The translations under genes and the position numbers were made by a program. The notes under the pieces were generated by a model, which saw only the letters and a list, made by a program, of their open reading frames with translations, did not search any database and was not told where the DNA came from. This document shows, in pieces, positions 12,885-32,272 of a DNA stretch of 64,000 nt; within the stretch, counting starts at the first letter, position 1, and each line of letters opens with the position of its first letter. This stretch comes from an uncultured Candidatus Saccharibacteria bacterium (GTDB lineage: Bacteria; Patescibacteriota; Minisyncoccia; Phycocordibacterales; UBA9973): contig CAYXTA010000001.1 in the NCBI GenBank assembly GCA_964468315.1, positions 193-64,192 on the forward strand, written 5' to 3'.

Positions 12885-12957
12885 GCCGAGGTAGCTCAGT
12901 TGGTAGAGCGCTCCCCTGAAGAGGGAGATGTCACCAGTTCAAATCTGGTCCTCGGCA
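12885..12957 (+). tRNA. tRNA-Phe (anticodon GAA)
   Basis: Perfect cloverleaf: gccgagg...cctcggc, D-loop agttggta, anticodon loop ctGAAga, T-arm accag ttcaaat ctggt. Confidence 0.85.
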
Positions 12958-14498
12958 CAACCACAGAAGTCGGCGAAAATGGTCGGGTCAAAAGCGAATT
13001 TCTGCGAAATTCGCAAGGAGTCGGAAGTCCGTCCGGTCTTTATAAATAAGGTGAAATCCCATAAATCCCCCCAGTGTATGGAAACCATTTTGTCCTTAAT
13101 CACGGGGTTCGAGCCGACTTTTTGAAAAAACTTCTTCCATTCGATGTAATCGGAAGTTTTTTCTAAATTGACGGCTTCTTTTAAGGACAAAATGAAATTC
13201 CGCAAAGGTTCGACCCAATTATTTCTCTGATGTCCAAAATGACTCAAACTTTCCTCAAGCTTGATTTTTTGACGCATCAAAATATCTTTTCGTTCGAGAT
13301 ATATACCTTTCTCAACCTCGCCATCGAGATATATCGAGACGAGTCGATCAAGCTTGGTTTTTGTTTCGGAAAGTTTGGTCTTTACATTTTGGATATCAAT
13401 TCCGTTTGCCGAAATTGACTCACTTTCCCAAACAGTAATCTGCTTTTCCATTTCTTCAATTTCGGACAACGGAAACGACACTGATTGAAGCAGGGTACGC
13501 AATTGTGTGGCGAGTGCATTTTCCTGCAAATACGGCTGACTACACTTTCCTTTCTTTTTACTGCAACGATAATAAATATACCGAGTTCCAGAATCATTCG
13601 TTGCATATTGAGCCGTAATTGCTCCTGTGCATTCGCCACACTTCGCAAGACCACGAAAATCAAATGGATGCGCAATTTTTGATTTTCGTGGTCTTTGACG
13701 ATTTGCGTACACTTTCTGCACTGCTTCGAACAGTGTCGGAGAAATAATTGGCTCAAAGGTTCCATCGTACCACTCGCCACGATGGTTTATAAAACCGAGA
13801 TATGCGCGATTGGTAAGCATTTTCGCGATGGACCAAGTGCATAGTGGCGTTCCTTTTTTCTGTACAACTCCGTGATCCGCCAAAAAATCTGCCAAGGTTT
13901 CAAAAGTGTGAGTCTTGTTGGAATACTCTTCAAACGCTCGCTTAATAACTTTGCCATACACGGGATGTGGTTCGATATTCTTTGTTTTATAATTATTCAC
14001 ATAGCCCATCGGAGCGAGCGTTAGCCATTCACCACGACGGATTTTTTGGCGGATTCCACGCTTAACATTTTCAACTAAGTTGTCAGAAAAATATTTGGAT
14101 TGCCCGAACGCCACTTGCAACATAAATTTGCCTTGCGGAGTTGGCTCAAACCAAAACTGCGGAAAGCGTAAAGAAGCAATTCTGTTGATGTCTACAAGGT
14201 AAATTATTTTACCTCCATCAACAGAATTCCGAGCAAGACGGTCAGGGTGCCATGCCAAAATGCCAAGCGGTTCACTTGAGCTTTCAATATATTCAATCAT
14301 TTTGGCAAAACCGTCTCGCCCGGGCTTCTTTGCGCTTTTTGATTCTGTAAATACTTTTACAATATCAATGCGTTCTCTGCTCGCAAATTCTTTCAACTCA
14401 AAAAGCTGTGCCTCGATGGACATAACTTGCTTATCGTCCTCTTCAGTAGATTTGCGAGCATAGAGAACACATTTAGTTTTGGTTTGAGTTGTTTCCAT
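12939..14498 (-). CDS. large serine recombinase (resolvase/invertase N-domain + recombinase + zinc ribbon)
   Basis: METTQTKTKCVLYARKSTEEDD (catalytic Ser context), recombinase domain, and Cys cluster CGECTGA...YYRCSKKKGKC. Stop codon TGA is complementary to 12939-12941 inside the tRNA-Phe T-loop. Start taken at METT; an alternative in-repeat start lies at 14597. Confidence 0.85.
   Translation of the reverse strand: METTQTKTKCVLYARKSTEEDDKQVMSIEAQLFELKEFASRERIDIVKVFTESKSAKKPGRDGFAKMIEYIESSSEPLGILAWHPDRLARNSVDGGKIIYLVDINRIASLRFPQFWFEPTPQGKFMLQVAFGQSKYFSDNLVENVKRGIRQKIRRGEWLTLAPMGYVNNYKTKNIEPHPVYGKVIKRAFEEYSNKTHTFETLADFLADHGVVQKKGTPLCTWSIAKMLTNRAYLGFINHRGEWYDGTFEPIISPTLFEAVQKVYANRQRPRKSKIAHPFDFRGLAKCGECTGAITAQYATNDSGTRYIYYRCSKKKGKCSQPYLQENALATQLRTLLQSVSFPLSEIEEMEKQITVWESESISANGIDIQNVKTKLSETKTKLDRLVSIYLDGEVEKGIYLERKDILMRQKIKLEESLSHFGHQRNNWVEPLRNFILSLKEAVNLEKTSDYIEWKKFFQKVGSNPVIKDKMVSIHWGDLWDFTLFIKTGRTSDSLRISQKFAFDPTIFADFCGCAEDQI
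12955..13081. repeat. inverted repeat A, left copy (127 bp)
   Basis: Reverse complement of 14492..14618 with one mismatch. Overlaps the last 3 nt of tRNA-Phe. Confidence 0.9.
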
Positions 14499-14618
14499 AC
14501 ACTGGGGGAATTTATGGGATTTCACCTTATTTATAAAGACCGGACGGACTTCCGACTCCTTGCGAATTTCGCAGAAATTCGCTTTTGACCCGACCATTTT
14601 CGCCGACTTCTGTGGTTG
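14492..14618. repeat. inverted repeat A, right copy (127 bp)
   Basis: Matches 12955..13081 in inverted orientation. Contains the recombinase ATG and upstream region. Confidence 0.9.
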
Positions 14619-14882
14619 TGCGCTAATTATACGCTTTGCGCGAACTTTTTTCGAGAAGCAAAGTGATTAAGCGCATCCGTTGCGCTGAAGCGCCACCACG
14701 CCAAGCGTGGTGCTTTTCCTAAAAGGAAAAGACGGAAGCGCTTAGACCCAATGCGGACTCGGTTTTGCGAAAGCTATATTCTCTGGGATACGATTTTGCA
14801 AAACCTCGGCATATTCTTTTTTGAAATTCGGCAGGGTTTCGGTTTGGTTTGGCACGCAGGAGGGTCTGGGAGGAATGCGTGC
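14619..14882. repeat. inverted repeat B, left copy (about 264 bp, GC-rich)
   Basis: Reverse complement of 30958..31215 with a few mismatches. Begins gtgcgctaattatacg immediately after repeat A. Confidence 0.85.
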
Positions 14883-14920
14883 ACCTTTAATTTTGTACCC
14901 TGTTATATTTTAACATACCA

Positions 14921-14936
14921 TTGCGGTATACTGCAA
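14921..14936. promoter_or_regulatory. imperfect palindrome upstream of the HTH gene (candidate controller operator)
   Basis: ttgcggtatactgcaa is a near-palindrome centred on gtatac, about 20 bp upstream of the 14956 ATG. Confidence 0.3.
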
Positions 14937-14955
14937 CAAGGAGTAAACTCAATGT

Positions 14956-15162
14956 ATGAAAAGTGAGTCAAAAAAACTGGGAGGAAATCTAAAAACCATC
15001 CGAACTACAAAGGCAATATCACAAGGTGATATAGCGCGATCACTCGACGTTAGTCGAGGGTTTATTAGTAATATTGAAAATGGCAAAACCAACCCAACAC
15101 TTGAAACAATCGCAAGATTGGCAAAAGCTGTTGGTGTATCAACTAACGAGCTTTTGAAATAA
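14956..15162 (+). CDS. XRE-family HTH regulator (restriction-modification controller-like C protein)
   Basis: 68 aa. ISQGDIARSLDVSRGFISNIENGKTNPTLETIARLAKAVGVSTNELL is the canonical HTH_3/XRE fold. Lies immediately upstream of the restriction/helicase operon. Confidence 0.75.
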   Translation: MKSESKKLGGNLKTIRTTKAISQGDIARSLDVSRGFISNIENGKTNPTLETIARLAKAVGVSTNELLK

Positions 15163-15166
15163 TTGA

Positions 15167-18100
15167 ATGATAAAGAATTTCAACAATAAGACAGAAAAGG
15201 TTGGTGATGACCTAAAAAATACTATTAAAAAAGGCAGTAAACTTGATATTGCTGCTGCTATTTTTTCTATGTATGGATTTGAGAGCTTAAAAACTGAATT
15301 AAAAAATATTGATGAACTTCGTTTTATTTTCACTGATCCTACTTTTATTGAACTTGATAAAAGTAAGCGTCAAGAAAGAATGTTTGAAATTCTTGCAAAC
15401 AATAGAAAAAAAGCCATAGGAGGGTCTGATTTTGAAATAAATTTAAAGAACGAACTTAGAGGTAAATCTATTGCGAAAGAGTGCAAAAAATGGATTGAAG
15501 ATAAGGTAAAATTTAAAACAAATAGAGCTGGTGGATTCATCCAGCCTCAGTTTATTGTTCGTAATGAAGATGAATCAATTTTGTATAGTGGTATAAATGA
15601 ATTTAGTAGTTCTGGTGTGGGGTATGAAAAAGATAACTCTATTTTAAATATGGTAATGAAGTCTGATGATTATCAGACAACGCATGAGTATATTAAAAAT
15701 TTTGAAGAAGTATGGAATGACGAAAAATCATTAAAAGATGTTACTGATGAAGTCCTTGGTTATATTTCAAATATATATAAAGAGAATTCTCCTGAATTTA
15801 TTTATTACATAACACTCTATAATATTTTTGATGAATTTTTGGAAGATATAACAGAAGATGAATTGGCTAATGAAAAAACAGGGTTTAAAGAATCTGCTGT
15901 TTGGCATATGTTATACGATTTTCAAAAAGATGCTGTTTTGGGAGTTATTAATAAGCTTGAAAGACACAATGGTTGTATCTTGGCAGATAGTGTTGGATTA
16001 GGTAAGACTTTTTCTGCACTCGGTGTCATTAAATACTATCAAGAGAGAAATAAGAGTATTCTCGTTCTTTGTCCTAAAAAGCTCAGCGACAACTGGCAGA
16101 CTTTTCTTTCAAATTACGAAGACAATCAATTATATAAAGATAGATTTAATTACGATGTTTTATATCATACAGACCTTTCTCGCGATAAAGGGTTTTCAAA
16201 TGGTAAAGATCTTTCTCGTGTAAACTGGGGCAATTATGATTTGGTTGTAATCGACGAATCACATAACTTCAGAAATAATGATCCAAGAAAAGATAAGATA
16301 ACTCGATATCAGAAACTTTTAAATAATGTAATGAAAGCAGGAGTAAAAACAAAGGTCCTAATGCTCTCTGCTACTCCTGTAAATAATAAATTTACTGATT
16401 TAAAGAATCAAATAGCTTTGGCTTATGAGGGACATACAGATGTAGTTGATGATAAAATGGATATTACTAAATCAATTAATTCTATTTTAAATCAAGCACA
16501 AAGGACTTTTAATGACTGGTTAAAATTACCAGTAGAAGAACGTACTGGAACAAATCTTTTGTCTGAGTTGAATAAAAACTTCGACTTTTTTAAACTACTA
16601 GATAATATTACTATCTCAAGAAGTAGAAAACATATCATGAAGTATTATGATACTTCTGCTATTGGTAAATTCCCAAATAGATTAAAGCCTATTACTTATC
16701 GTTCGGATATTACTGATATAGAGGGATTTATGAAGGTAGATGAATTGTATGAACAATTGACCAGATTAAATATGGCCATGTATTCTCCTTTTGATTATAT
16801 TCTTCAAGATAAAATACAATTCTATAATGAAACTTATGATACTCAAATTTCAGGAAATTCGAGTTTAAAACAGTCTACTCGTGAAAAAAGTTTACAGAAA
16901 CTAGTGAAGATAAATTTTCTTAAAAGACTAGAGAGTTCTGTGGATTCATTTCGTATTACTTTGGAAAAATTTGTTAATGCAGTTGATGCAACTGTTAAAA
17001 GCATTGATGAGTTTGAAAAAACAGGAGTTAATAGTATTACAGAAGCTACCCAAATAAATGATTCTGGTTTTGATGAAGATGAGGAGAATGAAGATTGGCT
17101 TGATGATGAATTTAGTTTCGGTGGAAAAGTAAAAATAAACCTTGCGGATATGAATACTGCTGGTTGGAAGGAAGACTTACAATTTGACTATAAAATAGCA
17201 AAAGCAATTCTTGATGAAATGAAGCGTGTTACTCCAGAGCATGATTCTAAACTAAAAGATCTTCGAGATTTTATTACACATAAGATAAAAAATAATATAA
17301 ACCCAGATAATAGTAAAGTGGTAGTTTTTACAGCTTTTGCTGATACAGCAAATTATCTTTATGAAAATATATCTACTTGGGCTAAGGATACTCATGCACT
17401 AGAATCTGCTCGTATTACTGGTGGTGGAACCAATAAATGTACCCTCGATATAGATAGTCAATTTAATAACTTATTAATACATTTTTCACCACGATCAAAA
17501 GGTCGTCATGAAAAGTATAAGGACCACAAAGAAATCGATATTTTAATTGCTACTGATTGTATTTCAGAAGGTCAGAACCTTCAAGATTGTGATACTCTCG
17601 TAAACTACGATATTCACTGGAATCCTGTGCGTATAATCCAACGCTTTGGGCGTATTGACCGTATTGGATCTATTAATACTGATATACAGCTCGTAAACTT
17701 CTGGCCACAGATATCACTTGATGATTATATTAATCTTAAAAACCGCGTAGAGGGTCGTATGCTCCTTGTAGACATGACAGCAACTGGAGATGACAATGTG
17801 CTTACAAATCAATCTTCGGATATAGATTTTAGAAAACAACAATTAGAAAGACTTCAAAATGAAGTTGTGGATATTGAAGAAATGGATTCTGGTATTTCTA
17901 TTACAGATTTAGGACTAAACGACTTTCGTATGGATTTGGTGAATTACATTAAGTCTGGCCAAAATTTAGAAGGTTTAGCAAATGGTATGCATGCGGTATG
18001 CCCACAAGCACCAGAAAAAGGAGTAGAAAAAGGAGTTATCTTTGTATTAAAAAATATCAACAATGAAGTAAATATTGATAATACAAATCAACTTCATCCG

Positions 18101-18427
18101 TTTTATTTAGTATATATAAATGAGCAAGGGCAAGTTATTTCAAATCATCTTAATGTAAAAAATACTTTAGATATCTTACGTTCTATCGCTAAAGGTAAAG
18201 ACGAGCCTATTCCTGTAGTTTATGAATTATTTAACGACGAGACAGACGATGGTAAGAAGATGGATAAATATTCCAATCTTTTGAGTGAGTCTATACAATC
18301 AATCATCCATGTAAAAGATGAATCAGATGTAGATAGTTTATTTAGTGTTGGTGGTACTACTGCACTTATGAATAGTATAAAAGGTCTGGAAGATTTTGAA
18401 TTAATTAGCTTTATGGTTATTAAATAG
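15167..18427 (+). CDS. SNF2-family helicase/ATPase (SNF2_N + helicase C) with uncharacterised N- and C-terminal domains
   Basis: ILADSVGLGKTFSALGVI (motif I), VIDESHNFRN (motif II DEXH), LSATPVNN, and C-terminal ILIATDCISEGQNLQDC...HWNPVRIIQRFGRIDRIGS (motifs IV-VI). Confidence 0.85.
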   Translation: MIKNFNNKTEKVGDDLKNTIKKGSKLDIAAAIFSMYGFESLKTELKNIDELRFIFTDPTFIELDKSKRQERMFEILANNRKKAIGGSDFEINLKNELRGKSIAKECKKWIEDKVKFKTNRAGGFIQPQFIVRNEDESILYSGINEFSSSGVGYEKDNSILNMVMKSDDYQTTHEYIKNFEEVWNDEKSLKDVTDEVLGYISNIYKENSPEFIYYITLYNIFDEFLEDITEDELANEKTGFKESAVWHMLYDFQKDAVLGVINKLERHNGCILADSVGLGKTFSALGVIKYYQERNKSILVLCPKKLSDNWQTFLSNYEDNQLYKDRFNYDVLYHTDLSRDKGFSNGKDLSRVNWGNYDLVVIDESHNFRNNDPRKDKITRYQKLLNNVMKAGVKTKVLMLSATPVNNKFTDLKNQIALAYEGHTDVVDDKMDITKSINSILNQAQRTFNDWLKLPVEERTGTNLLSELNKNFDFFKLLDNITISRSRKHIMKYYDTSAIGKFPNRLKPITYRSDITDIEGFMKVDELYEQLTRLNMAMYSPFDYILQDKIQFYNETYDTQISGNSSLKQSTREKSLQKLVKINFLKRLESSVDSFRITLEKFVNAVDATVKSIDEFEKTGVNSITEATQINDSGFDEDEENEDWLDDEFSFGGKVKINLADMNTAGWKEDLQFDYKIAKAILDEMKRVTPEHDSKLKDLRDFITHKIKNNINPDNSKVVVFTAFADTANYLYENISTWAKDTHALESARITGGGTNKCTLDIDSQFNNLLIHFSPRSKGRHEKYKDHKEIDILIATDCISEGQNLQDCDTLVNYDIHWNPVRIIQRFGRIDRIGSINTDIQLVNFWPQISLDDYINLKNRVEGRMLLVDMTATGDDNVLTNQSSDIDFRKQQLERLQNEVVDIEEMDSGISITDLGLNDFRMDLVNYIKSGQNLEGLANGMHAVCPQAPEKGVEKGVIFVLKNINNEVNIDNTNQLHPFYLVYINEQGQVISNHLNVKNTLDILRSIAKGKDEPIPVVYELFNDETDDGKKMDKYSNLLSESIQSIIHVKDESDVDSLFSVGGTTALMNSIKGLEDFELISFMVIK

Positions 18428-18428
18428 C

Positions 18429-19046
18429 ATGAACTTCAATTTACCCCAGCAGGCATATTTACACAGATTTATACCAAAGAATAAATTCTCTGATAAAACT
18501 GAAGTTAATACAAAGCTAAAAAAAGAATTTACAGATCAAATACAGAAAATAATTTGGGAATATAAATTAGCTCCTAGTACTGTTGGTATATCTGCCACCG
18601 AAAAAGTTGAAGAAATTCAAATATTTGAAATTCAATTAAAGGAAAAAATAATACCTAAAAATGTATTAAAAATTATAGACAAAGCTATCCCGTATCCTAT
18701 TTTATATGTTTTTAAATACGAAGGACATTATGCTTATGGTATTACCTTAAAAGAAGATAACTCTCAGAGATATTACTTCTCAGAATGGGATGAGAAAAAG
18801 GAATTTAATTTCTTTGGTATCGACCTGGAACACGTGTACCAAGGCTTAGTTACCAGTTTTATTGGTATTCGCCAGAAGGGTCAAGATTTTGCTACAATAG
18901 TAAATACAGATAAACAAATAGAATCCTTAGAAAAAGAGATCAATGCTCTGAAAAACAAGGTCAAAAATGAAAAGCAATTCAACAGAAAAGTAGAGTTAAA
19001 TAAGGTATTAGCAGAAAAAAAGAAGTCGCTCAAGTCTATATTATAA
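18429..19046 (+). CDS. small uncharacterised protein, DUF4391-like (tentative)
   Basis: 205 aa with C-terminal coiled coil. AIPYPILYVFKYEG resembles, from memory, the conserved YPI motif of the DUF4391 family, which co-occurs with SNF2 helicases and methyltransferases. Not verifiable here. Confidence 0.4.
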   Translation: MNFNLPQQAYLHRFIPKNKFSDKTEVNTKLKKEFTDQIQKIIWEYKLAPSTVGISATEKVEEIQIFEIQLKEKIIPKNVLKIIDKAIPYPILYVFKYEGHYAYGITLKEDNSQRYYFSEWDEKKEFNFFGIDLEHVYQGLVTSFIGIRQKGQDFATIVNTDKQIESLEKEINALKNKVKNEKQFNRKVELNKVLAEKKKSLKSIL

Positions 19047-19067
19047 ATTATCAATAACATCATTATT

Positions 19068-21005
19068 ATGAAAAAACTAGCAATGCAAACACCAGACCTT
19101 ACAGAAGGTAATATTACAAAGATAAAAGAACTATTTCCTAATGTAATTACTGAAAAGGAAGGTCCTGATGGTGTTATTGAAAAGGCCGTAGACTTTGAGC
19201 TTCTGAAGCAGATACTTTCAAAAGAGCTAGTGGAAGATGATAATGAGCGTTATCGCCTCGACTGGCCTGGTAAAAAAGCTTCACTTTTGAAAGCGAATAC
19301 CCCTATTACTAGCACACTTCGTCCAGACAGAGAAAGTAGTGTTAATTTTGATACAACTGAAAATGTGTTCATAGAAGGCGATAACTTTGAAGTTTTAAAA
19401 GTCCTCCAGGAGTCATATTTAGGAAAGATAAAAATGTGCTACATTGACCCCCCATACAATACGGGAACTGCAATGATTTATAGTAATGATTTCAGTAAAA
19501 CAGAAGAAGAATATGATGAAGAAATGGGTGCGGTTGATGAAGAAGGTATCAAAATGTTCAAGAATACTGACAGTAACGGTCGCTTTCATAGTGATTGGCT
19601 TAGTATGATGTATGAAAGGATTGTTGTAGCTAGAGATTTGTTAACAAATGATGGTTTTATGGCATTGGCTATTGATCATAATGAGTTACATAATTTAATA
19701 TCAATTTGTGATGAAATTTTTGGTGAAAATAATAGAGTGGGAGTAATCACTGTAGTACATAAACCAGAAGGAAGAAATCAAGAGAAGTTTTTTGGAACAA
19801 GTAATGAATTTATGCTTGTTTATTCAAAAAATAAAGATGAAGCAAATTTTAATGATGTTGTTTTAGATGATTCCCTTGCTGAGTTATTTGACTCAAACGA
19901 TGAAAGAGGAAAGTTTAAATTAAAGAATTTTATTAGATTGTCGGATGGTAAATATAGTTTGAGAGTTAATAAACCACATTTTTATTATCCTGTTTATGTT
20001 AATGGTGACTTTACAGAAATTTCACTAAGTCAAAAGGATGGATTTATCGCAGTCTATCCAATAACTCAGGCTGGGCAAGAGAGAACATGGAAAACTACAC
20101 CAGAAACATTAGTAGATAGATTTAATAAAGGTGATTTAATATTTACAAAAAATAAGGATAATGAGATAGAGCTTTTTGAGAAACTTAGAGAAAATCAAGT
20201 TATTAAAACACACTGGATTGATAAAAAATATCACGGTTATCATTTTGGTACAAAAATCATTGATTCACTATTGGGAGATAAAACATTTGATTTTCCAAAG
20301 TCATTATTTTTAATGAAGGATGTTTTAAAAATGATGGCATCAGGTGATGATATTATCTTAGATTTTTTTGCTGGATCAGGTACAACAGCACATGCTACTA
20401 TTCAGTTAAATGTAGAAGATGGCGAAAATAGAAAATTTATTATGGTTCAAATTCCAGAAAAAACAGAGAGTGATTCTGATGCATACAAAGCGGGTTATAA
20501 AACTATTTCAGAAATTAGTATGGAGCGTATACGTAGGGCAGGCAAAAAGATTGTAGAGGAAAATGCAGAAAAATTAAAAGAAAGAGAAACACCGTTAGAT
20601 ATTGGATTCCGTGTGTATAAGACTGATACAACAAACATGAAAGATGTTTACTATCATCCGTCTGCCGTCAACCAGGATGATTTGTTTAATCACGTTAGTA
20701 ATATAAAAAATGACAGAACACCAGAGGATTTGCTCACTCAGGTAATTCTTAACCTTGGGCTAACCTTAGACCTCCCAATAGAAAAGAAAAATATAAAAGG
20801 TAATGATGTTTATTTTGTCGCAGGTAATGCACTCGTTGCTTGTTTTGATGACAAGATTGATTTTGGGATCGTGGAAGAAATAGCAAAGTCTGAGCCGTTA
20901 AAAGTCGTATTCAAAGATGCAAGCTTTAAGGAAGAACAAGATAGAACAAATGTCGAAACAAAATTCAAGAGGTTGTCTCCGGAAACAATAATCACTGTAT
21001 TGTAA
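19068..21005 (+). CDS. Type III-like DNA methyltransferase (Mod; beta-class N6-adenine/N4-cytosine methyltransferase)
   Basis: CYIDPPYNTG (motif IV DPPY) lies N-terminal to ILDFFAGSGTTAHA (motif I FxGxG). This order is the beta-class permutation typical of Type III Mod. Confidence 0.85.
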   Translation: MKKLAMQTPDLTEGNITKIKELFPNVITEKEGPDGVIEKAVDFELLKQILSKELVEDDNERYRLDWPGKKASLLKANTPITSTLRPDRESSVNFDTTENVFIEGDNFEVLKVLQESYLGKIKMCYIDPPYNTGTAMIYSNDFSKTEEEYDEEMGAVDEEGIKMFKNTDSNGRFHSDWLSMMYERIVVARDLLTNDGFMALAIDHNELHNLISICDEIFGENNRVGVITVVHKPEGRNQEKFFGTSNEFMLVYSKNKDEANFNDVVLDDSLAELFDSNDERGKFKLKNFIRLSDGKYSLRVNKPHFYYPVYVNGDFTEISLSQKDGFIAVYPITQAGQERTWKTTPETLVDRFNKGDLIFTKNKDNEIELFEKLRENQVIKTHWIDKKYHGYHFGTKIIDSLLGDKTFDFPKSLFLMKDVLKMMASGDDIILDFFAGSGTTAHATIQLNVEDGENRKFIMVQIPEKTESDSDAYKAGYKTISEISMERIRRAGKKIVEENAEKLKERETPLDIGFRVYKTDTTNMKDVYYHPSAVNQDDLFNHVSNIKNDRTPEDLLTQVILNLGLTLDLPIEKKNIKGNDVYFVAGNALVACFDDKIDFGIVEEIAKSEPLKVVFKDASFKEEQDRTNVETKFKRLSPETIITVL

Positions 21006-21012
21006 TATTTAT

Positions 21013-24000
21013 ATGAAATTACAGTTTAAACAGCAACAATATCAAGCAGATGCCACAAATGCAGTGGTGCGGGTTTTTGATGGTCAAGAAAAAGGGGTTA
21101 GGAAGGAAGTGGTGGGAAGAGTTAAAGCAAATGATTTGTTTCAGAAGACTATGGTAGAAGAAATTTTTTCAAATAAAAAACTTGATATTGATGAAAAACA
21201 AATACTTACTAATGTGCAAGAACTCCAAAAAGAACAAGGAATAAAAGTTGGTAAAAAATTAGAGGGTTTAAATTTTACCGTAGAAATGGAAACAGGTACT
21301 GGTAAGACGTATGTTTACACCAAAACAATGTTTGAGCTAAATAAAGAGTATGGCTGGAATAAGTTCATAATTATGGTCCCCTCTGTTGCTATTCGTGAAG
21401 GAGTGAATAAGTCCATGGAAATAACGGCAGATCATTTTCAGGAAATATATGGTAAAAAAATAAGATTCTTTATTTATGATACAAAGAATAAGACAAATCT
21501 AACTAATATAAAATCTTTTGCAAATACATCGAATATTGAAGTGATAATAATGAATTATCAAGCTTTCGGACGAACAAGTAAAGATGCCTTGAAAATGTTC
21601 CAAAAGCTTGATGAGATGCAGTCAGAAAAGCCTATTGATGTTATCAAGCGTGCCCGCCCAATATTGATTATCGATGAGCCACAACGTTTTGGTCAAACAG
21701 CACAATCAATGCTTCCTGAATTTAACCCACTTTTTATTACTCGATATTCTGCAACACATAAAGAGGATTACAATAAAATATATCGTCTTGATGCTATTGA
21801 TGCATACAACCAAAAACTAGTTAAAAAAATAAGAGTAAAAGGGATAGAAGTAAAAGGTAATTCTGGTACGAATAGTTACTTATTCCTAGATAGAATACAT
21901 GTAAGTAGTAATGCATACCCTACCGCTACTGTGCAGATGGAGATAGAAACAAAACAATCTGGTGGAATTAAGAAGACTTTAAAGAAAATTAAGGAGGGAG
22001 ATAATTTATTTGCTGTCTCTGGTGAATTGGCTCAATACGAAGGATATCTTGTAAAAGAAATTAATGCACGTACGAATACCGTTTCTTTTACCAATGGGAT
22101 TTCAATATCAGTCGGTCAAGTCCATGGAGATGTAGATGAGCTACACATACGAACAATTCAAATACGTGAAGCAATAGCATCACATATAGAAAAAGAAAGA
22201 GAACTCTATACCAAGGGAATTAAGGTCCTCACCTTATTCTTTATTGATGAGGTTGCAAAGTATCGTGCTTACGATGATAAAGGAAAACAAATACGCTCAG
22301 AGTATGAGGAAATATTTGAATATGAATACAAACAGGCCATATCACAAAGAGATTTGTTTAATGATGAATATTATAAATACCTAGATTCTTTTGATGTATC
22401 AAAGGTTCATAATGGATATTTTTCTGTTGACAATAAAGGGAGAGCAGTAAATTCTAAAGAAACTCGAGGTCAGGATGGTAGTGACGATGTAAATGCATAT
22501 GATCTTATTATGAAAAATAAGGAACAATTACTGAGCTTCAAAGAGCCGACTCGTTTTATTTTTTCTCACTCAGCACTTCGTGAAGGATGGGATAATCCAA
22601 ATATTTTTCAAATATGCACACTAAAGCATAGTGAATCTACAATAAGTAAACGTCAAGAAATAGGCCGTGGACTTCGTATTGCTGTAAATGATCAAGGAGA
22701 AAGAATGGATCATAGTGTTCTTGAGAATGAATTTTTTGATATCAATACATTGACTGTTATTGCAAGTGAATCATATGATACTTTTTCAAAGCAATTACAA
22801 GGCGAAATTTTAGACACATTATCTGATCGCCCAAGTAGCCTAGAAGTTGGTGTATTCAAAGACAGGATTCTAAAAAATAAAGACGGAGAGACTTTTGTTT
22901 TTGACGATAAACATACTATGGATTTAATATTTATGTTTAAGGAAAAGGGTTATGTTGATAGTGATTACAAAATTACAGAAAAACTAATAGAGGCTATTGA
23001 TTCAGATACAGTTGAAATACCTGTAGTTCTTGTAAATTTTAAAACAGAATTGGTAAATATGATTCAAAAAGTGCACGCAACAAATACCTTTAAATCTTCA
23101 GAAGATGATCGTGCTAATAATGTAAAAGTATCTATTTTAAAACCTAATGAAAACTTCTTCAAACAGGAGTTTAAGGATTTATGGAATAAGATAAAAATAA
23201 AGACAGTATATGATGTTTCTTTTGATGGTAAAGAACTAATTGAAAAAAGTATCAAAAGTATCGATGCTACGCTAGATGTAAATAAAGCTACTGTTAGAGT
23301 TACTATTGGTGAGCAAAAAGACAATATAACAGAAGAATTATTAAAAAGTGGTGAGTCTATTTCAAAAACAAGTAATCAAATAGAGAAAACTGAAAGTATT
23401 TTAGGTTCAATTAAATATGACATTATAGCTGAAGTCGCAAAGGGTGCAAATATAACAAGAAAAACATCAGGTGAGATTCTTGGTAAAATGAACAAAATCA
23501 AATTTGCTTTGTTCAAGGTGAATCCCGAGCATTTTATTCGTGAGGTTGTTCGTCATATTAATGAACAAAAAGCAGCAACTCTTATAAATAATATAACTTA
23601 CCACAAGCTCGACAGTGTATATGAAGATGACATTTTTACTGTAAATAATTTCCAAGGAGCACTTGATAATAATGTTCTAAAAGTAAACAAGCATATTTAT
23701 GAATACGTGAAGACTGATTCTAAAATAGAACGTAAATTTGCAGAAGAAATGGATCTCGAAGGTAGTAAAGTCCTTATATACGCAAAATTACCTAACGGCT
23801 TTAAGATTCCTACTCCAATAGGTAATTATAATCCGGACTGGGCTATTGTATTTGATAGTAAGGATATTAAATATATCTATTTCATCGCTGAAACAAAAGG
23901 TAGTATGAGTACACTACAACTAAAAGGATCTGAATTACAAAAAATAAATTATGCTAGAAAACATTTTGAAGCATTGTCGTGTGCTGATTTGAAATACGAT

Positions 24001-24045
24001 GTTGTAGATAGTTACGAGAGTTTAATGGAAAAAGTAATGAGGTAA
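21013..24045 (+). CDS. Type III restriction enzyme Res subunit (helicase-nuclease)
   Basis: METGTGKTYV (Walker A), ILIIDEPQRF (DEAH-like), FIFSHSALREGWDNPNIFQIC (helicase motif VI region), and a long C-terminal domain. About 1000 aa, as for Res. Confidence 0.85.
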   Translation: MKLQFKQQQYQADATNAVVRVFDGQEKGVRKEVVGRVKANDLFQKTMVEEIFSNKKLDIDEKQILTNVQELQKEQGIKVGKKLEGLNFTVEMETGTGKTYVYTKTMFELNKEYGWNKFIIMVPSVAIREGVNKSMEITADHFQEIYGKKIRFFIYDTKNKTNLTNIKSFANTSNIEVIIMNYQAFGRTSKDALKMFQKLDEMQSEKPIDVIKRARPILIIDEPQRFGQTAQSMLPEFNPLFITRYSATHKEDYNKIYRLDAIDAYNQKLVKKIRVKGIEVKGNSGTNSYLFLDRIHVSSNAYPTATVQMEIETKQSGGIKKTLKKIKEGDNLFAVSGELAQYEGYLVKEINARTNTVSFTNGISISVGQVHGDVDELHIRTIQIREAIASHIEKERELYTKGIKVLTLFFIDEVAKYRAYDDKGKQIRSEYEEIFEYEYKQAISQRDLFNDEYYKYLDSFDVSKVHNGYFSVDNKGRAVNSKETRGQDGSDDVNAYDLIMKNKEQLLSFKEPTRFIFSHSALREGWDNPNIFQICTLKHSESTISKRQEIGRGLRIAVNDQGERMDHSVLENEFFDINTLTVIASESYDTFSKQLQGEILDTLSDRPSSLEVGVFKDRILKNKDGETFVFDDKHTMDLIFMFKEKGYVDSDYKITEKLIEAIDSDTVEIPVVLVNFKTELVNMIQKVHATNTFKSSEDDRANNVKVSILKPNENFFKQEFKDLWNKIKIKTVYDVSFDGKELIEKSIKSIDATLDVNKATVRVTIGEQKDNITEELLKSGESISKTSNQIEKTESILGSIKYDIIAEVAKGANITRKTSGEILGKMNKIKFALFKVNPEHFIREVVRHINEQKAATLINNITYHKLDSVYEDDIFTVNNFQGALDNNVLKVNKHIYEYVKTDSKIERKFAEEMDLEGSKVLIYAKLPNGFKIPTPIGNYNPDWAIVFDSKDIKYIYFIAETKGSMSTLQLKGSELQKINYARKHFEALSCADLKYDVVDSYESLMEKVMR

Positions 24046-24059
24046 AAATTAAATAAATT

Positions 24060-25208: not shown

Positions 25209-25212
25209 TTTT

Positions 25213-26718: not shown

Positions 26719-26719
26719 T

Positions 26720-26851
26720 ATGGACGAAGAAACATTTGAAATAGCAAAAGAAAATGATTTAAGTCTTGAGGAAGCTGAAGAACTTCGGGACTTTGCTGAC
26801 GAGAATGACATTGAAGTAGATGATGCTTTAGAAATTTGGCAAGATTTATAA
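26720..26851 (+). CDS. small acidic protein (43 aa)
   Basis: MDEETFEIAKENDLSLEEAEELRDFADENDIEVDDALEIWQDL. Track ORF 26597.. overlaps the upstream gene; ATG 26720 follows its stop. Confidence 0.3.
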   Translation: MDEETFEIAKENDLSLEEAEELRDFADENDIEVDDALEIWQDL

Positions 26852-27118: not shown

Positions 27119-28000
27119 ATGATATACACAAATAAAATACAAAAAGCTATAGAACTCGCAATACAAACTCACGAGATAGATGATAAACAAAAAAGGAAAG
27201 GCAAAGATATACCGTACATTACGCACCCGCTTTCTGTAGGGCTTATACTCGCTACAGCAGGGGGTACAGAGGATGTGATAGTCGCTGGTATACTCCACGA
27301 TACTATTGAAGATAGTACAGTTGAAAAGAAAATCACAAAGGAAATGATTGCCGAGCAATTTGGTGATAATGTAATGCAATTAGTCCTAAGTGTTACAGAA
27401 CAAAATAAATCCTTGTCCTGGGAAGAAAGAAAAGCCGAAGCGCTTGAGCATATAAAAACATTTTCACACGATTCACTGCTATTAAAGTCTGCAGACATAA
27501 TTTCAAATACAACAGAACTTATTTCTGATTACCAAATAGAGAGAGAAGAAACTTTTGATAGGTTCAATGCCCCAAAAGAAAGAATTTTAAAAGGTTATAC
27601 TGATTCTATAAATGCTATCTTGTATAAATGGTCAGAGAGTCCTCTTGCTGAGGATCTAAAAAATGTATTAGGAGAAATAAAAAGTATGACAGAAAGTAAA
27701 GAAGAAGTTGAATTTTATCTAAATTCAGAAGAATTAAAAGAAAGGCGTATTGTGTACGTTGCTTGTGAAGATGAAGAGAATTGTGGTTTTATTGTGGAAT
27801 TCAAATTTCCTAATTGTACTTTTTTCTTCTGTAAAGAACACAAAATGGGATTTAATATTGATTTAAATACTGTTACTGATGATGGCGTTTTGTGTAAACA
27901 GCATAATGAAATGGAGCGCTACAATGTCTTGACAGAAGATAATGTTTGCCCAGTATGCGAAAAGAATACCCTTGCAATACTTTCTGCTAGAATTAACTAA
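27119..28000 (+). CDS. HD-domain phosphohydrolase, RelA/SpoT-type (p)ppGpp hydrolase-like (SAH) with C-terminal Cys-rich zinc ribbon
   Basis: YITHPLSVGLILATAGGTEDVIVAGILHDTIED (HD motif with the His-Asp pair). C-terminal CxxC...CPVC. Confidence 0.7.
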   Translation: MIYTNKIQKAIELAIQTHEIDDKQKRKGKDIPYITHPLSVGLILATAGGTEDVIVAGILHDTIEDSTVEKKITKEMIAEQFGDNVMQLVLSVTEQNKSLSWEERKAEALEHIKTFSHDSLLLKSADIISNTTELISDYQIEREETFDRFNAPKERILKGYTDSINAILYKWSESPLAEDLKNVLGEIKSMTESKEEVEFYLNSEELKERRIVYVACEDEENCGFIVEFKFPNCTFFFCKEHKMGFNIDLNTVTDDGVLCKQHNEMERYNVLTEDNVCPVCEKNTLAILSARIN

Positions 28001-28047
28001 AAAATTAAAAATTTGGCAGGATCTATAAAAAGGTCTATGATAGGGGT

Positions 28048-28938
28048 ATGGAAGGACTAACATTTAAAGAAAAAATTATATTGGAAAAAACAAACAAATT
28101 CTTAAAAAAACACAAGCCGTCTTTTGTATTGACTGCTATTGTTATATTGAGTGTTTTAATCGGCAATGCCATCTATTTTTCTATTTGGCCGTCTGACGAT
28201 AAGACCCTTTTAAGTTCTTTGACTGATATTGAGAATGACAACTGCTCTGTAGTAGGTATTAATTTACATGGAACTTTACTAACATATATTGCACCTCATT
28301 CTGAAAGTGACCCCCTTTTTAATTATGATTCCGTAGCTAGTGAAGATATATATTTTAAAATTAAACAAGCAAATGAAGATGAAAGTATAAAAGCAATTAT
28401 ACTGGAAGTTGACTCTGGTGGAGGGTCTGGAATTGCTGGTGAAGAGGTTTCAAATATTATTAAAAATAGTGCTAAACCTGTCGTAGGATGGATAAGAAGT
28501 GTAAGTGCGTCGGCGTCGTATTTTGCTGTAAGTAGTGCTGATAGGATATTTGCCTCAAAATTTTCTGATGTTGGAGGAATAGGTGTGACCGCTTCTTATT
28601 TAAGTAATGTAAAAAAGAATCAAAAAGATGGCTTAAATTACGAGCAATTGATTGCAGGTAAATATAAAGATTCAGGAAGACCTGATAAGCCACTTACAGA
28701 AGAAGAAAAGAAATTATTTTTGAGAGATATAAATATTGGGTATGAGAACTTTATGAAAGCTGTTTCCGCGAATCGTAATATACCAATTGAAAAAGTTAGA
28801 GAAATTGCTGATGGTTCAACAGTGATGGGAGAGCAAGCAAAGGAACTTGGTTTGATTGACGAGATTGGTGGAATTAATGAGGTTGAAAAGTATCTTGAGG
28901 AAACAATCGGAGAAAAGCCAGAGATTTGTTGGAAGTAA
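28048..28938 (+). CDS. sppA: signal peptide peptidase SppA-like serine protease
   Basis: N-terminal TM. IKAIILEVDSGGGS...ASYFAVSSADRIFA resembles the SppA/ClpP-fold catalytic region. Confidence 0.7.
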   Translation: MEGLTFKEKIILEKTNKFLKKHKPSFVLTAIVILSVLIGNAIYFSIWPSDDKTLLSSLTDIENDNCSVVGINLHGTLLTYIAPHSESDPLFNYDSVASEDIYFKIKQANEDESIKAIILEVDSGGGSGIAGEEVSNIIKNSAKPVVGWIRSVSASASYFAVSSADRIFASKFSDVGGIGVTASYLSNVKKNQKDGLNYEQLIAGKYKDSGRPDKPLTEEEKKLFLRDINIGYENFMKAVSANRNIPIEKVREIADGSTVMGEQAKELGLIDEIGGINEVEKYLEETIGEKPEICWK

Positions 28939-28960
28939 TTTAATAATATAATATTTAACT

Positions 28961-29413
28961 ATGAAAAATAACCGTAACAGCGTATTAACAGGAGTAACTG
29001 GCGAATATTATGTAGCCGCAGAACTTTCTCGTATGGGATATATTGCTTCTATCACTCTCAGAAATACTAAAGGGGTAGATATTCTGTGTTCAAACTCTGA
29101 CGCGACGAAAACTGTTAGTATACAAGTAAAGACTGGATCAGAAGTTAAGAGCACTTGGATTCTAAGTGAAAAGTCAGAAAAATATTATGCACAAAAACTT
29201 TTTTATGTGTTCGTAACTTTGAGTAAAAATTTACACCCAGAGTATTCTATCGTACCAAGTAAAATCGTTGCTGATTTCATAACTAAAAATCACAAAAATT
29301 ACCTAGGTTCTCTTAGTAAAAAGGGCAAAGAGCATAAAGATAGCTCTATGAGAAAGTTTATTGATTTGGAGAAAAAGTATTTAAATAGGTGGGACTTATT
29401 AGGTCTTAACTAG
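28961..29413 (+). CDS. hypothetical protein, restriction-endonuclease-like fold (tentative)
   Basis: EYYVAAELSRMGY...GVDILC...IQVKT shows an E / D / QxK spacing reminiscent of PD-(D/E)xK. Confidence 0.35.
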   Translation: MKNNRNSVLTGVTGEYYVAAELSRMGYIASITLRNTKGVDILCSNSDATKTVSIQVKTGSEVKSTWILSEKSEKYYAQKLFYVFVTLSKNLHPEYSIVPSKIVADFITKNHKNYLGSLSKKGKEHKDSSMRKFIDLEKKYLNRWDLLGLN

Positions 29414-29500
29414 GTAGGTATGGGTATTATACCACAATTTAATCTAAAATGCAAGTATTTTTTACCATACAAATTAAGCTCTTTTTGATATAATCCATAT

Positions 29501-30073
29501 ATGGCAGATGAAATAGACACTAATACCCAAACGCCTCAAACTGAGCCTCTAGAGGTGCCAAAATTGGCACCAGAAGCAACTTCTGAAGCTCAAACGGCTC
29601 AAATACCATCAAGTGAGCCGTTGGCTACTGAACCCGAGCTAATTGCAACACCAGAAGTAACGTCTGAACCTTTGCAAACTTCTGGCGAGGTAAAAGCCGA
29701 GCCAGAGAAAGAAGAAACGGAAATCCCTGAATCAAAACACGAAGATCAAACTTCTTCACAATCTGAGACTCAATCCCAACCCACTACTCCACCACAGGAG
29801 GCAACGCCTCCTGTGGTAATAATCCCTCCTGTAAATAAAATTCGTGAACTTCTTGCGAAAGCCAGAAATGCAATTCAATTTAGAAAAAGAAAGAAACTAG
29901 AAAAAATCATGAACATGTTCACGAAGCGAACAAATGTAACTAACGACGAAGTTGAGAAACTTTTGCATGTCTCTGATGCCACTGCAACAAGATATCTCAC
30001 TATCCTCAAGAAAGAAAACAAGATTAAACAATCTGGAAAAACAGGGAAAGGAGTTTCGTATTCTAAGATTTAA
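29501..30073 (+). CDS. Pro/Thr/Glu-rich low-complexity protein with C-terminal winged-helix
   Basis: N-terminal 110 aa acidic PT-rich. C-terminal VEKLLHVSDATATRYLTILKKENKIKQSGKTGKGVSY is HTH-like. Confidence 0.4.
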   Translation: MADEIDTNTQTPQTEPLEVPKLAPEATSEAQTAQIPSSEPLATEPELIATPEVTSEPLQTSGEVKAEPEKEETEIPESKHEDQTSSQSETQSQPTTPPQEATPPVVIIPPVNKIRELLAKARNAIQFRKRKKLEKIMNMFTKRTNVTNDEVEKLLHVSDATATRYLTILKKENKIKQSGKTGKGVSYSKI

Positions 30074-30489: not shown

Positions 30490-31215
30490 TATAGGGAGCA
30501 GAAGTTGCCTACGCGCACGGGTGGGTGGAGTGTGTGCGTACTCGCACACACTCGGGGCAAGTATTTGCATTTGCACCTCGGGCATTTCCGCTATGTGCGT
30601 CCATGGCTGACGGATGAGCGCCGACCCTATATTGCAATACTAAAGGTAAATAGCGAAGCGACACACTAACATCTAATCTGATAAAGCGTAGAGTGGGGGT
30701 GGCGAGGGTGGACCGCTGTATTCAGCGACACCCGACCCGGGGAGAGGAAACTTCCTCTCCCCGAGAAGCGCGGGCAATCTACTAAACGGCTCATCCTCTG
30801 GTATTTGAGCCGTTTAACTATCTGGTTTGCCCGCTCATAGGCATGTAGGCGTGAGTAGCCATAGCGGAAATGCCCGAGGCGGATGCCGAGGGTGATACCT
30901 ACCGACAGACAGGACAACACATCGAGAAAGGAACGAGGTACAATATTGAATTTGTATTTTTGAGTTATGCCCGCATTCCTCCCAGACCCTCCTGCGTGCC
31001 AAACCAAACCGAAACCCCGCCGAATTTCAAAAAAGAATATGCCGAGGTTTTGCGAAATCGTATCCCAGAGAATATAGCTTTCGCAAAACCGAGTCCGCAT
31101 TGGGTCTAAGCGCTTCCGTCTTTTCCTTTTAGGAAAAGCACCACGCTTGGCGTGGTGGCGCTTCAGCGCAACGGATGCGCTTAATCACTTTGCTTCTCGA
31201 AAAAAGTTCGCGCAA
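30490..31215 (-). ncRNA. GC-rich structured element (candidate large ncRNA or ORF-less mobile RNA element); contains inverted repeat B right copy
   Basis: About 725 nt and clearly GC-richer than its surroundings. Many hairpins (for example ggggagaggaa actt cctctcccc, and gagtgtgtgcg tact cgcacacactc). A 20-nt long-range pairing joins 30574-30593 and 30863-30882. ORFs in it (30666..31100 minus, 30870..31109 plus) have foreign composition. Strand uncertain. Confidence 0.35.
30958..31215. repeat. inverted repeat B, right copy
   Basis: Reverse complement of 14619..14882. Ends ...taattagcgcacaa at the island/chromosome junction. Confidence 0.85.
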
Positions 31216-31270
31216 AGCGTATAATTAGCGCACAAATTTATATATAATAACTTAAAAAATTAAGTACTTT

Positions 31271-32272
31271 ATGGAATCATTAGAAAATAATAATATATCT
31301 ATTGGTGGGCAGAAAAAAGTTGAAGAATATGTTGATCGTATTAGAAATGGAGAATCTGAGGACCTTATTTTTAAAGATCTTCCAGAATCTTTTAAAAATG
31401 GTATTAAAAAAATACTTAATGAATCTGTAGAAGAAAAAAATAAAAGATACGAGTCTGAACAAAATAGAATTGAAGAACTTAGAGAACAACTTGGTGCTAA
31501 AAAATCAACAGAAAAGATAAATTTATTAGATATTCAAGAAAGAAAAAAACTACAAGGATGGACAGCTAGTTATGAATTGGCAAAAATTGCAAAACAGCAG
31601 GGTATTGATTTATCAAAAATTTCTAGAGAAGAATATGTAAATTTCGCAATACAAAATTCTTTAGCTATTGATGACGATCAGTTAAGGGTTGCACCATGGC
31701 AAAGAATGGGTACTTCTGTCGAAGAAATCGTTTTAGAAAACAGAAAAAGAAAAGCACAAATAAAAGAAGAATCTGAAAAAGAGTTTGCAAAATTTTGTTA
31801 CGAAACACAACAAAAAGCAGGCCAAGAAAATCGTTTTATTTCAGAAAATATTAGAATAAGACAAGGTACAAAAGATTCTAATTCCTGGCTGTTTTTCGGG
31901 ATCAATAACGGAACTGGAGAAAAAAGTAATGAAACTTATAAATCGTATGTTTCTGTTAAAGATTTGAATACTTTAACCCCTGAAAGATTTACACAATTTA
32001 TGACAGCTCTTAGGGATGCAAAATATAATGGTGATATCAAAATTTTCCAAGATTTATCAGAGCAAGGTGTTAGATTAAATGATCAGATTGTTATGCATGG
32101 AGGTTCACAAACAGATGCAGAACTTGGTTTGCAAGTTGCTGAACAATTTTTCGGTACAGATTTAGACCAAAAGAGTCTAGGAAAAGATGAAGTTATCAAT
32201 GGAGAGAATAAAAGTTATAGTCAGATTCTTGCATTAAAAATTTCAGAAGCTGTAAATAAAAAAACCGCTTAA
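31271..32272 (+). CDS. hypothetical protein
   Basis: 333 aa, charged with coiled-coil-like N-terminal half. No family recognised. Confidence 0.45.
   Translation: MESLENNNISIGGQKKVEEYVDRIRNGESEDLIFKDLPESFKNGIKKILNESVEEKNKRYESEQNRIEELREQLGAKKSTEKINLLDIQERKKLQGWTASYELAKIAKQQGIDLSKISREEYVNFAIQNSLAIDDDQLRVAPWQRMGTSVEEIVLENRKRKAQIKEESEKEFAKFCYETQQKAGQENRFISENIRIRQGTKDSNSWLFFGINNGTGEKSNETYKSYVSVKDLNTLTPERFTQFMTALRDAKYNGDIKIFQDLSEQGVRLNDQIVMHGGSQTDAELGLQVAEQFFGTDLDQKSLGKDEVINGENKSYSQILALKISEAVNKKTA

Follow-up and report, generated by a model that had tools for sequence, protein, structure and literature searches.

What is a serine recombinase gene doing between the arms of a near-perfect inverted repeat, one end of which reaches into a tRNA gene, and does the pair of repeats delimit a unit of its own or part of something larger? 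Such an arrangement is found in a 64,000-nucleotide stretch of DNA (the window, that is, the whole stretch that was analysed; contig CAYXTA010000001.1 of assembly GCA_964468315.1, positions 193 to 64,192) from an uncultured Candidatus Saccharibacteria bacterium of the Patescibacteriota, where the gene lies on the minus strand beside tRNA-Phe. A preliminary description had seen in it an invertible or insertion sequence (IS)-like cassette rather than a standard prophage integrase arrangement. The layout is indeed not that of a standard prophage integrase, and the cassette proves to be one end of a much longer integrative island. The attachment site of this island lies within the recombinase open reading frame (ORF), and the inverted repeat is part of an inverted duplication of the 3' end of the gene, which probably acts as a switch between a dormant and an active recombinase.

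Determined by repeat search and pairwise alignment, the repeat is slightly longer than had been described: its arms, at 12955-13085 and 14491-14621, measure 131 nt instead of 127, agree at 130 of the 131 positions and lie 1405 nt apart. A 21-nt probe taken from the arm occurs at only these two places in the window, none being expected in shuffled sequences. The single mismatch, C at 13077 against T in the other arm, falls in a GAT (Asp) codon which is kept as D or E in the C-terminal tail of the family, the coding arm retaining the conserved Asp. The minus strand of the left arm encodes the tail of the recombinase (VSIHWGDLWDF...FCGCA), as had been recognized, and the arm overlaps tRNA-Phe by 4 nt, rather than abutting it; its plus strand is a copy of the leader plus ATGGAAAC. 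The right arm includes the leader, the recombinase ATG (14498) and the first 8 nt of the coding sequence.

A second inverted repeat, with arms at 14616-14883 (X1) and 30968-31235 (X2) which are identical at 266 of 268 positions and lie about 16 kb apart, overlaps the first one by the 6 nt GCACAA. This core is common to three junctions: that of tRNA-Phe with the left arm (12955-12960), that of X1 with the right arm (14616-14621, inverted) and that of X2 with host DNA (31230-31235, direct relative to 12955). Three junctions with a common core are the signature of attL, an intact attP and attR. The crossover core of attL, on the plus strand, consists of the last two acceptor-stem bases, the discriminator A and 3 further nt. 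The left arm is the element-side arm of attL, the right arm and X1 are the inner and outer arms of the intact, inverted attP copy, and X2 ends in the attR core. The integration target and B arm of attL is tRNA-Phe(GAA) (12885-12958, plus strand; ARAGORN, Rfam tRNA 73 bits), which the insertion has left unchanged, since it is identical to the empty-site copies through GGTCCTCGGCAC / GGCAC. Empty sites were found in three independent assemblies, where a host gene of 85 aa and tRNA-Phe are followed by the host terminator and an HSP20 gene (GGTCCTCGGCAC joined to ATCAAATTAAAAAAACCGC); the empty and occupied sequences part directly after GGCAC(A), and what the empty sites are without is all of 12959 to ~32256 (~19 kb), not the 1.67 kb of the cassette. 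A direct repeat of the 3' half of the tRNA, sought as the mark of the far end, was not found, the 6-nt core alone being common to both ends. These comparisons show an integrative island of ~18.3 kb (12955-31235), which a large serine recombinase has placed at the tRNA-Phe 3' end.

The recombinase in its integrated, clipped form (12939..14498, minus strand) has 519 aa, with the domains PF00239, PF07508 and PF13408. In the longer ORF of 552 aa (12939-14597, minus strand) these score as Resolvase (PF00239, 5e-23, residues 44-191), Recombinase (PF07508, 2e-12) and Zn_ribbon_recom (PF13408, 4e-9) in Pfam. The catalytic motif, YARKS, is invariant in the family alignment, the closest solved relative is the SPbeta integrase (E 9e-7), and identity to phage or plasmid members is 25-28% at most. 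The G+C content reaches 41-43% at 13-15 kb, against ~31% for the window. The stop codon of the gene (12939-12941) falls inside tRNA-Phe on the opposite strand: residues 1-515 are encoded by the element, whereas the last four (EDQI) and the stop come from the antisense strand of the tRNA. No records of the exact 519-aa or 552-aa forms were found, and the 515-aa form led to one further locus, L169, which is treated below.

Relatives of the recombinase were gathered from contigs of one genome per species and from JGI metagenomes; at least 550 encoding stretches were confirmed in each, and the best 80 of each were analysed. Labels such as L001 denote the fetched loci of these relatives, and the sets differ with the count made (58, 65, 75 or 106 loci; 83 or 105 unique arms; 70 unique junctions). 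A scan of IMG/VR yielded no relatives of the recombinase. In nearly all family loci the DNA outside the start-codon-side arm, here called X, is conserved, and attP was reconstructed by joining each C-terminal arm and its core to the reverse complement of its own X. Across this join the recombinase frame runs into a conserved peptide, x-I-[LI]-x-F-A-R-T-[FY]-F-E-x-x-stop, which is found in the recombinase frame at 69 of the 70 unique junctions, with the junction in all three codon phases across lineages; codon-position entropies over the motif are 0.91/0.72/1.25, the third position being the most variable. Moreover, 103 of 105 unique arms have no stop in this frame over their outer 84 nt, whereas each of the other five frames is open in 32-67 arms, and in 98 of 106 loci the first stop lies past the core. 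The motif ends the called genes in 9 of the 120 best database homologues, and among the fetched loci seven are full-length, against 96 ending in antisense tRNA or tmRNA. In the AlphaFold model of a homologue (P0103), long helices (339-441) follow the zinc ribbon, a linker (485-507), which the arm encodes, has a pLDDT below 50, and the motif forms a terminal helix (511-528) with one of ~80.

The reconstructed junctions place the attachment site inside the recombinase ORF, about 16 codons before its stop. Since the frame crosses the core into a conserved C-terminal peptide, integration clips the enzyme, leaving its tail at attL by the tRNA and sending the last 16 codons, together with the 3' untranslated region, to attR, 16 kb away. 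The full-length form, of 530 aa, would end in FCGCA-LIIRFARTFFEKQSD, where the 519-aa form ends in FCGCA-EDQI. This feature, an ORF which crosses the attachment site in such a way that integration replaces a conserved C-terminus, had been missed in the preliminary description.

The content of X can be read in the same terms. On its plus strand, X1 includes an inverted spare of the 16 codons with which the full-length recombinase gene ends (14620-14670, ALIIRFARTFFEKQSD and the stop codon), with a terminator-like hairpin downstream of them (14694-14712), while the detached authentic 3' end, again ALIIRFARTFFEKQSD and stop, runs from 31231 to 31181 on the minus strand at attR. As the last 16 codons lie in X and the terminator-like hairpin follows them, X consists of these codons and the 3' untranslated region of the full-length gene. 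The 131-bp repeat is the tail-coding part, and the 268-bp repeat the X part, of a ~400-bp inverted duplication in which the 3' end of the gene (tail, core and X) recurs as a second copy immediately upstream of it. Of the two 131-bp arms, the left one is the real gene tail, now ending in the tRNA, and the right one the spare copy, whose other strand serves as leader and start codon. The arms are not oversized attachment sites, since the common crossover core measures 4-8 nt and the rest of the arm is duplicated 3' coding tail. A promoter-like sequence, TCGAAA-17-TATAAT (14654..14626, minus strand), lies in X1 and faces the recombinase; it falls outside the 131-bp repeat, which consequently does not hold the whole upstream region, as had been supposed, but the leader and start codon only. 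Transcription is predicted to start at about the core (~14619-14621), and the leader would thus equal the arm. Read on the other strand, the two hexamers correspond to the conserved F-F-E and I-I codons. The pentamer GTTCG is located 24 nt from the core in X and 18 nt from it in the T-arm of the tRNA, but its reading as a half-site is confounded, because much of the signal in X is coding motif on the other strand. In serine integrases the zinc-ribbon motif is offset between attP and attB; the resemblance of this offset to the GTTCG spacing has not been relied upon. At the distal boundary of X, many relatives carry the motif AATTCCTCCCC(A)nACCCC (14860-14883 and 30968-30990 in the window).

Within the left arm, third-position excess is confined to the inner 45 nt, the outer 84-86 nt being without codon periodicity. 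The 33-aa N-terminal extension once proposed for the recombinase (MVGSKANF..) exists as an open frame, but was rejected as real coding, as the frame is open in only 42 of 106 relatives and the aligned homologues annotated by NCBI start M-E-T; the wobble positions of the extension frame coincide with those of the tail frame, so that periodicity cannot separate the two, and the extension is treated here as an antisense shadow of the tail. The arm also contains a conserved hairpin (12994..13014, GCGAATTTC-TGC-GAAATTCGC, with a mirror copy at 14562-14582). RNAalifold gave no consensus on 24 family arms, MAFFT having split the hairpins, and was replaced by per-sequence counts against shuffles: 57 of 83 unique family arms, compared with 0.7 in shuffles, have a perfect hairpin with a stem of 7 bp or more that begins 25-50 nt in from the arm's outer end, and 31 different stems are represented. 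An intrinsic terminator was considered and rejected, a T-run following the hairpin in only 22 of 86 cases; the hairpin could be an RNA structure or a palindromic operator for the neighbouring helix-turn-helix (HTH) protein. Comparison of the window with L001, where the recombinases are 97% and X 100% identical, revealed differences at ~15 of the outer 33 arm positions (12959-12991 / 14585-14617), the changes being mirrored in both arms of each element. The two arms of an element evolve in concert. In this pair, the outer ~33 nt form a hypervariable patch beside the crossover point.

The same architecture characterizes the whole family. An inverted repeat, with a median length of 131 nt and perfect in 33 of 65 cases, brackets the recombinase gene in 55 of 58 evaluable genome loci, which come from independent assemblies and include one complete chromosome (L068, CP060229.1, arms 129/131 alike). 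Because it is carried by 55 of 58 relatives, the repeat is due neither to chance nor to misassembly; it is a family trait, though not one of terminal inverted repeats. The layout is kept down to 43% protein identity in metagenome loci, where the second, inverted X copy is also present, and in many relatives the repeat ends, on its inner side, 6-29 nt before it would reach the start codon. The relatives come almost entirely from assemblies of Patescibacteria, or candidate phyla radiation (CPR), and several genomes have more than one copy of the element. In 72 of 75 loci the C-terminal-side arm overlaps a tRNA 3' end by 4-8 nt, the targets comprising 13 tRNA species (Ala, Arg, Asn, Asp, Gln, Glu, Gly, Leu, Phe, Pro, Ser, Trp and Val) as well as tmRNA (L051, L076), and the four bases with which the arm begins vary with the tRNA (Ala, CCAC; Glu, TCAC; Leu, Phe, Arg and Gly, GCAC; Pro, CGAC; Ser and Asp, CCGC). 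The triad of attL, attP and attR, with cores of 4-8 nt, was found in 13 further small genome elements of 3.1-5.6 kb in whole size. Those of 3-4 kb contain only the recombinase, an HTH gene and one cargo gene, and no candidate for a directionality factor was identified in them. Furthermore, L169 (JAHZTO010200001.1) has a 100% identical recombinase and identical arms at the tRNA-Phe of a different host, whose tRNA-Phe (in the acceptor stem) and neighbouring gene differ from those of the window; an identical recombinase with identical arms in another host indicates recent horizontal transfer.

Some loci depart from the usual orientation. In L032, L007 and L171, against ~90 others across the relatives' assemblies, the tRNA is on the start-codon side; the contig of L007 ends inside the arm, whereas in L032 and L171 a tRNA-Ala occupies that side and a full-length ORF runs into X. 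The suggestion that the cassette can flip is thus matched by either orientation among relatives, and a flip would change the coupling of the gene. In three others (L012, Leu/Leu; L044, Ala/Ala; L089, Leu/Leu) a pair of convergent tRNA genes flanks the cassette and X is absent from both sides, which suggests that both attP copies may have reacted, by natural cassette exchange or chromosomal inversion. The arms of L014 (JAQTPS010000028.1) differ in their outer ~18 nt, the internal attP having a Leu-type core, GCACC, and the attL lying at tRNA-Ala with CCACC; this locus may have been caught in the course of target switching, or of a recombination between two elements. On a 27.8-kb TARA scaffold, L170, two recombinase genes that are 70-79% identical at the DNA level flank one restriction-modification cargo (in the order full-length recombinase 1, inverted X, cargo, HTH, X, recombinase 2), and in L172 a full-length recombinase stands between two different versions of X with cargo on both sides. 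To judge by their gene order, both are tandem or nested elements.

The reading that we favour is therefore that of an island with attP inside the recombinase ORF, the inverted duplicate of the 3' end probably acting as a switch, a role which is inferred. Integration through the downstream attP would be self-limiting, as the conserved C-terminal helix would be clipped off the enzyme, and the inverted spare copy would supply the clipped gene with its leader and probably also with its promoter. Recombination between the near-identical 131-bp arms, most likely homologous, would then flip 13086-14490, bringing the ATG to 13078 behind tRNA-Phe and rejoining the 3' end with 14622-14670 in X1, from which the 530-aa enzyme would result. 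With L032 and L171 flipped and full-length, relatives exist in exactly this post-flip state, and the concerted evolution of the two arms speaks for a flip as well. The orientation would be recognized by tRNA-Phe and arm followed by CATTTTGTCC or by AACTCAAACC; the circle junction would consist of the unique 3' end of the gene (AAGGACAAAATG), arm, core and GCTAATTATACGC, and the empty site would read GGTCCTCGGCACATCAAATT. A stronger version, which we regard as speculative and on balance unlikely, holds that this is a serine integrase with a cis-encoded switch of directionality or activity: the C-terminal helix would be tethered to the enzyme that the free element makes and missing from the one made after integration, and inversion between the arms would rebuild the full enzyme under read-through from the tRNA and re-arm excision without a separate directionality factor.

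Several observations weigh against a switch. Flipped relatives are rare (2-3 of ~90), and they could equally have arisen by integration through the upstream attP; comparison of the DNA beyond X in L032 and L171, which might have told the two routes apart, showed no homology there. The two orientations come from different assembled relatives, and the circle and flipping within one population are predictions. The clipped genes are intact ORFs in most loci, which suggests that the clipped form may still do something, and the overlap of the promoter-like hexamers with conserved codons on the other strand means that their conservation is no proof of a promoter. In addition, ~1 kb (31236-32256) between attR and the resumed empty-site homology is unexplained. 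The near-identity of the arms may have been inflated by repeat-collapsing short-read assembly, though many loci show mismatches. Short-read assemblers may indeed raise the likeness of arms or, on leaving the repeat, continue the gene into the wrong flank at its 3' end, and for this reason the full-length state is best backed by the long contigs L170-L172.

In a rival account the architecture is the same and the duplicate has no switching role, serving as leader and promoter, as an autoregulatory binding site and as a second usable attP. A circle with two equivalent attP copies would integrate through either of them, but the enzyme would be clipped and silenced by downstream integration only, which would therefore build up as a stable end point, and the arms would be kept alike by ordinary gene conversion. 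The strong bias to the clipped orientation (96 against 7, and 49 against 2), the promoter-like site in X that faces the gene and the imperfect arms of the flipped loci (73% alike in L171, 122/132 in L032) all speak for it, as do the cassettes with two tRNA genes in L012, L044 and L089, which fit the use of both attP copies but can also be derived from homologous recombination between copies. Nevertheless, it gives no reason for an inverted duplication that runs exactly to the start codon and stays near-identical across 43-100% protein divergence, and we hold it to be possible but somewhat doubtful. Action at the RNA level is improbable: here the 5' leader and the 3' tail of the mRNA would pair over 131 nt, and the resulting panhandle would hide the start codon or draw RNase III until ribosomes in the tail opened it. 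A predicted transcription start at about the core, which makes the leader equal to the arm, an ORF open across the whole arm although its outer 86 nt are without codon periodicity, and a conserved arm hairpin with covarying stems are what such pairing would lead one to expect. The open frame, however, is accounted for without it, since the attP form has to be read through to the conserved C-terminal motif, the repeat ends short of the start codon in many relatives, and the pairing of leader and tail is a prediction drawn from sequence.

The autonomous unit first envisaged, in which the 1.67 kb from 12955 to 14621 would itself be mobile or invertible and the arms would be its terminal repeats or recombination sites, accounts for a recombinase gene that lies wholly between the arms, for the many homologues on contigs of 1.7-1.9 kb and for the two orientations among relatives. 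Contigs of that length are, on the other hand, the expected product of an assembler at repeats longer than its k-mer, and the DNA that borders the right arm on its outer side is conserved in the whole family and recurs, inverted, at the far end of the island, 16 kb away. The empty sites are without ~19 kb, no copy has unrelated flanks on both sides, and the domains of the enzyme are those of a large serine recombinase rather than of the Hin/Gin layout. Moreover, attL and attP are not, to our knowledge, a pair which serine integrases recombine, and such a unit is very improbable. Hardly any weight at all can be given to an assembly artefact, in which a chimeric or fold-back join would have made the inverted duplication. 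Such duplications are a known artefact of amplified or short-read metagenomes, and the contigs of the family often break at the repeat; yet over 100 independent loci, drawn from various projects and assemblers and with a closed chromosome among them, have the same architecture, the arms differ at a selected codon, and continuity of the reading frame across the junction is conserved.

Compared with known systems, the enzyme shares the domain order of phiC31, Bxb1, A118/LI, SPbeta SprA and TnpX/TndX (a YxRxS catalytic domain, recombinase domain, zinc ribbon and long helices). Like the phage-type large serine integrases it is site-specific, with a very short common core and hybrid attL and attR, and its catalytic, recombinase and zinc-ribbon domains, together with attP x attB recombination at a short core, place it among the large serine recombinases. 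It differs from the phage-type enzymes in that its attP lies in its own ORF and a second, inverted attP copy flanks the gene. The directionality of serine integrases is set by a separate recombination directionality factor, for which the small relatives (3-5 kb) have no obvious room. With the Hin/Gin/Cin invertases, with which a comparison had been proposed, it has in common a recombinase gene inside an inverted-repeat segment that may face either way. Those, however, are serine recombinases of ~190 aa with a C-terminal HTH, 26-bp sites and an enhancer, whose flip switches neighbouring genes, while the enzyme of the window measures 519 or 530 aa, carries Recombinase and Zn_ribbon_recom domains, has arms made of duplicated coding sequence and would have its own C-terminus switched; by its domains and its best solved relative it is a large serine recombinase and not an invertase of that type. 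Nor is it an IS-like transposon with terminal inverted repeats, since the start-side flank is conserved (as X, repeated in inverse orientation at the far end) and the other flank is nearly always a tRNA or tmRNA 3' end.

A recombination site inside the integrase ORF is otherwise known from the SSV-type 'suicidal' tyrosine integrases of archaeal viruses and plasmids, where the gene is split on integration, for which tRNA genes serve as targets too, and is made whole again by excision (PMC7253208). That feature is common to the two systems, but the window enzyme is a serine recombinase from a bacterium, and where SSV-type genes are cut into two inactive pseudogenes, only ~16 terminal codons are exchanged here, the rest remaining an intact ORF. 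We know of no inverted spare copy of the 3' end in the archaeal systems. In mycobacteriophage BPs, attP lies in the 3' end of an ORF, and the integrated and free forms differ in C-terminus and activity (PMC4557955); there the repressor is affected, an ssrA-like tag is lost and the integrase is of the tyrosine type, whereas here it is the recombinase itself that would lose a conserved helix. As a tRNA island the element has an intact tRNA and the direct GCACAA at 12955 and 31230, without the usual tyrosine integrase. P4-like islands and tycheposons, tRNA-targeting islands with tyrosine integrases (bioRxiv 10.1101/2020.12.28.424599), have the intact tRNA 3' end, the tRNA-proximal integrase gene, short direct end repeats and defence cargo in common with it; the element is set apart by its enzyme family, by a gene whose frame runs antisense into the tRNA and by the additional inverted duplication of attP. 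Paired inverted attP sites are used in engineered cassette exchange (MiMIC/RMCE; bioRxiv 10.1101/2020.08.13.249656), a man-made arrangement, while here the pair is native and the cassette is the recombinase gene, L012, L044 and L089 looking like the natural counterpart. Searches of the literature brought up no paper on this CPR family, on inverted attP pairs in nature or on serine integrases whose attP lies within their gene, and a 2020 survey called t(m)RNA genes unreported as targets of serine integrases (PMC7192596). On sequence and layout, the element is a serine-integrase island whose attP splits the integrase gene and which keeps a spare copy of the 3' end in inverted orientation.

The remainder of the island is mostly cargo on the plus strand. 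Divergent from the recombinase there is an XRE-family HTH gene (14956..15162; Pfam HTH_3 8e-15), a gene that stands beside the recombinase-proximal X in 8 of the 13 small elements and also in L170 and L172. It is followed by an HKD/Snf2 helicase (15167-18427; Pfam, PADLOC HKD+Snf2 2e-133), a DUF4391 protein (18429-19046; Pfam), a type III methyltransferase (19068-21005; PADLOC MTase_III 2e-204) and a type III restriction enzyme (21013-24045; PADLOC REase_III 2e-290), and then by an ORF with weak family hits only (24060-25208), a DUF2779/Cas4-like protein (25213-26718; Pfam) and, within 27119..30073, an HD-domain protein, an S49 peptidase and two small ORFs, a group which the empty sites lack entirely. 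A SAM riboswitch (RF00162, 30340-30438, minus strand; 46.6 bits, above the gathering score) precedes a small unannotated minus-strand ORF, an odd thing to find in a CPR genome on a mobile island that carries defence genes. Immediately inward of the far-end X lies a G+C-rich structured element of ~400 nt (30505..30915; folding z = -8.4 and -8.5) with an invariant closing stem of ~20 bp (CCTCGGGCATTTCCGCTATG / CATAGCGGAAATGCCCGAGG); homologues occupy the same position in L119, L002 and L097, with 12 compensated pairs among 3 sequences, and the element could be an RNA of a new type or a DNA-level site of the island. Rfam gave no match for it, for X or for the arms. Beyond attR, the ~1 kb up to the host terminator (31236..32256, plus strand) is absent from the three empty sites and contains a 333-aa ORF (31271-32272) with no family match; it may be an older insertion, as a remnant at the same tRNA, or strain-specific DNA. 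Three contigs carry this downstream host gene, every one of them beginning inside X, and hence they show no empty site.

The finding has consequences for the family and for its hosts. Homologues of the recombinase are often found on contigs of 1.7-1.9 kb or a few hundred bases from a contig end: short-read assemblies of these genomes evidently come apart at the two long inverted repeats, which helps to explain the fragmentation and the lost islands of CPR genome bins. What emerges is a large clade of serine integrases, with hundreds of loci nearly all in Patescibacteria, which is aimed at tRNA and tmRNA 3' ends and whose 4-nt attP core matches the target. A natural attB on the near-universal T-arm/CCA end would make attractive landing pads, and if the C-terminal helix controls activity or direction, it would offer a compact, cis-encoded alternative to directionality factors, of importance for genome engineering with serine integrases, where having to supply a second protein is a limitation. 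The paradox of the 'suicidal integrase', so far one of archaeal tyrosine recombinases, gains a bacterial serine counterpart together with a possible escape from it, the inverted spare 3' end. The cis-encoded switch, if true, would explain how elements of 3-5 kb with little beyond a recombinase move among the tRNA genes of Patescibacteria.

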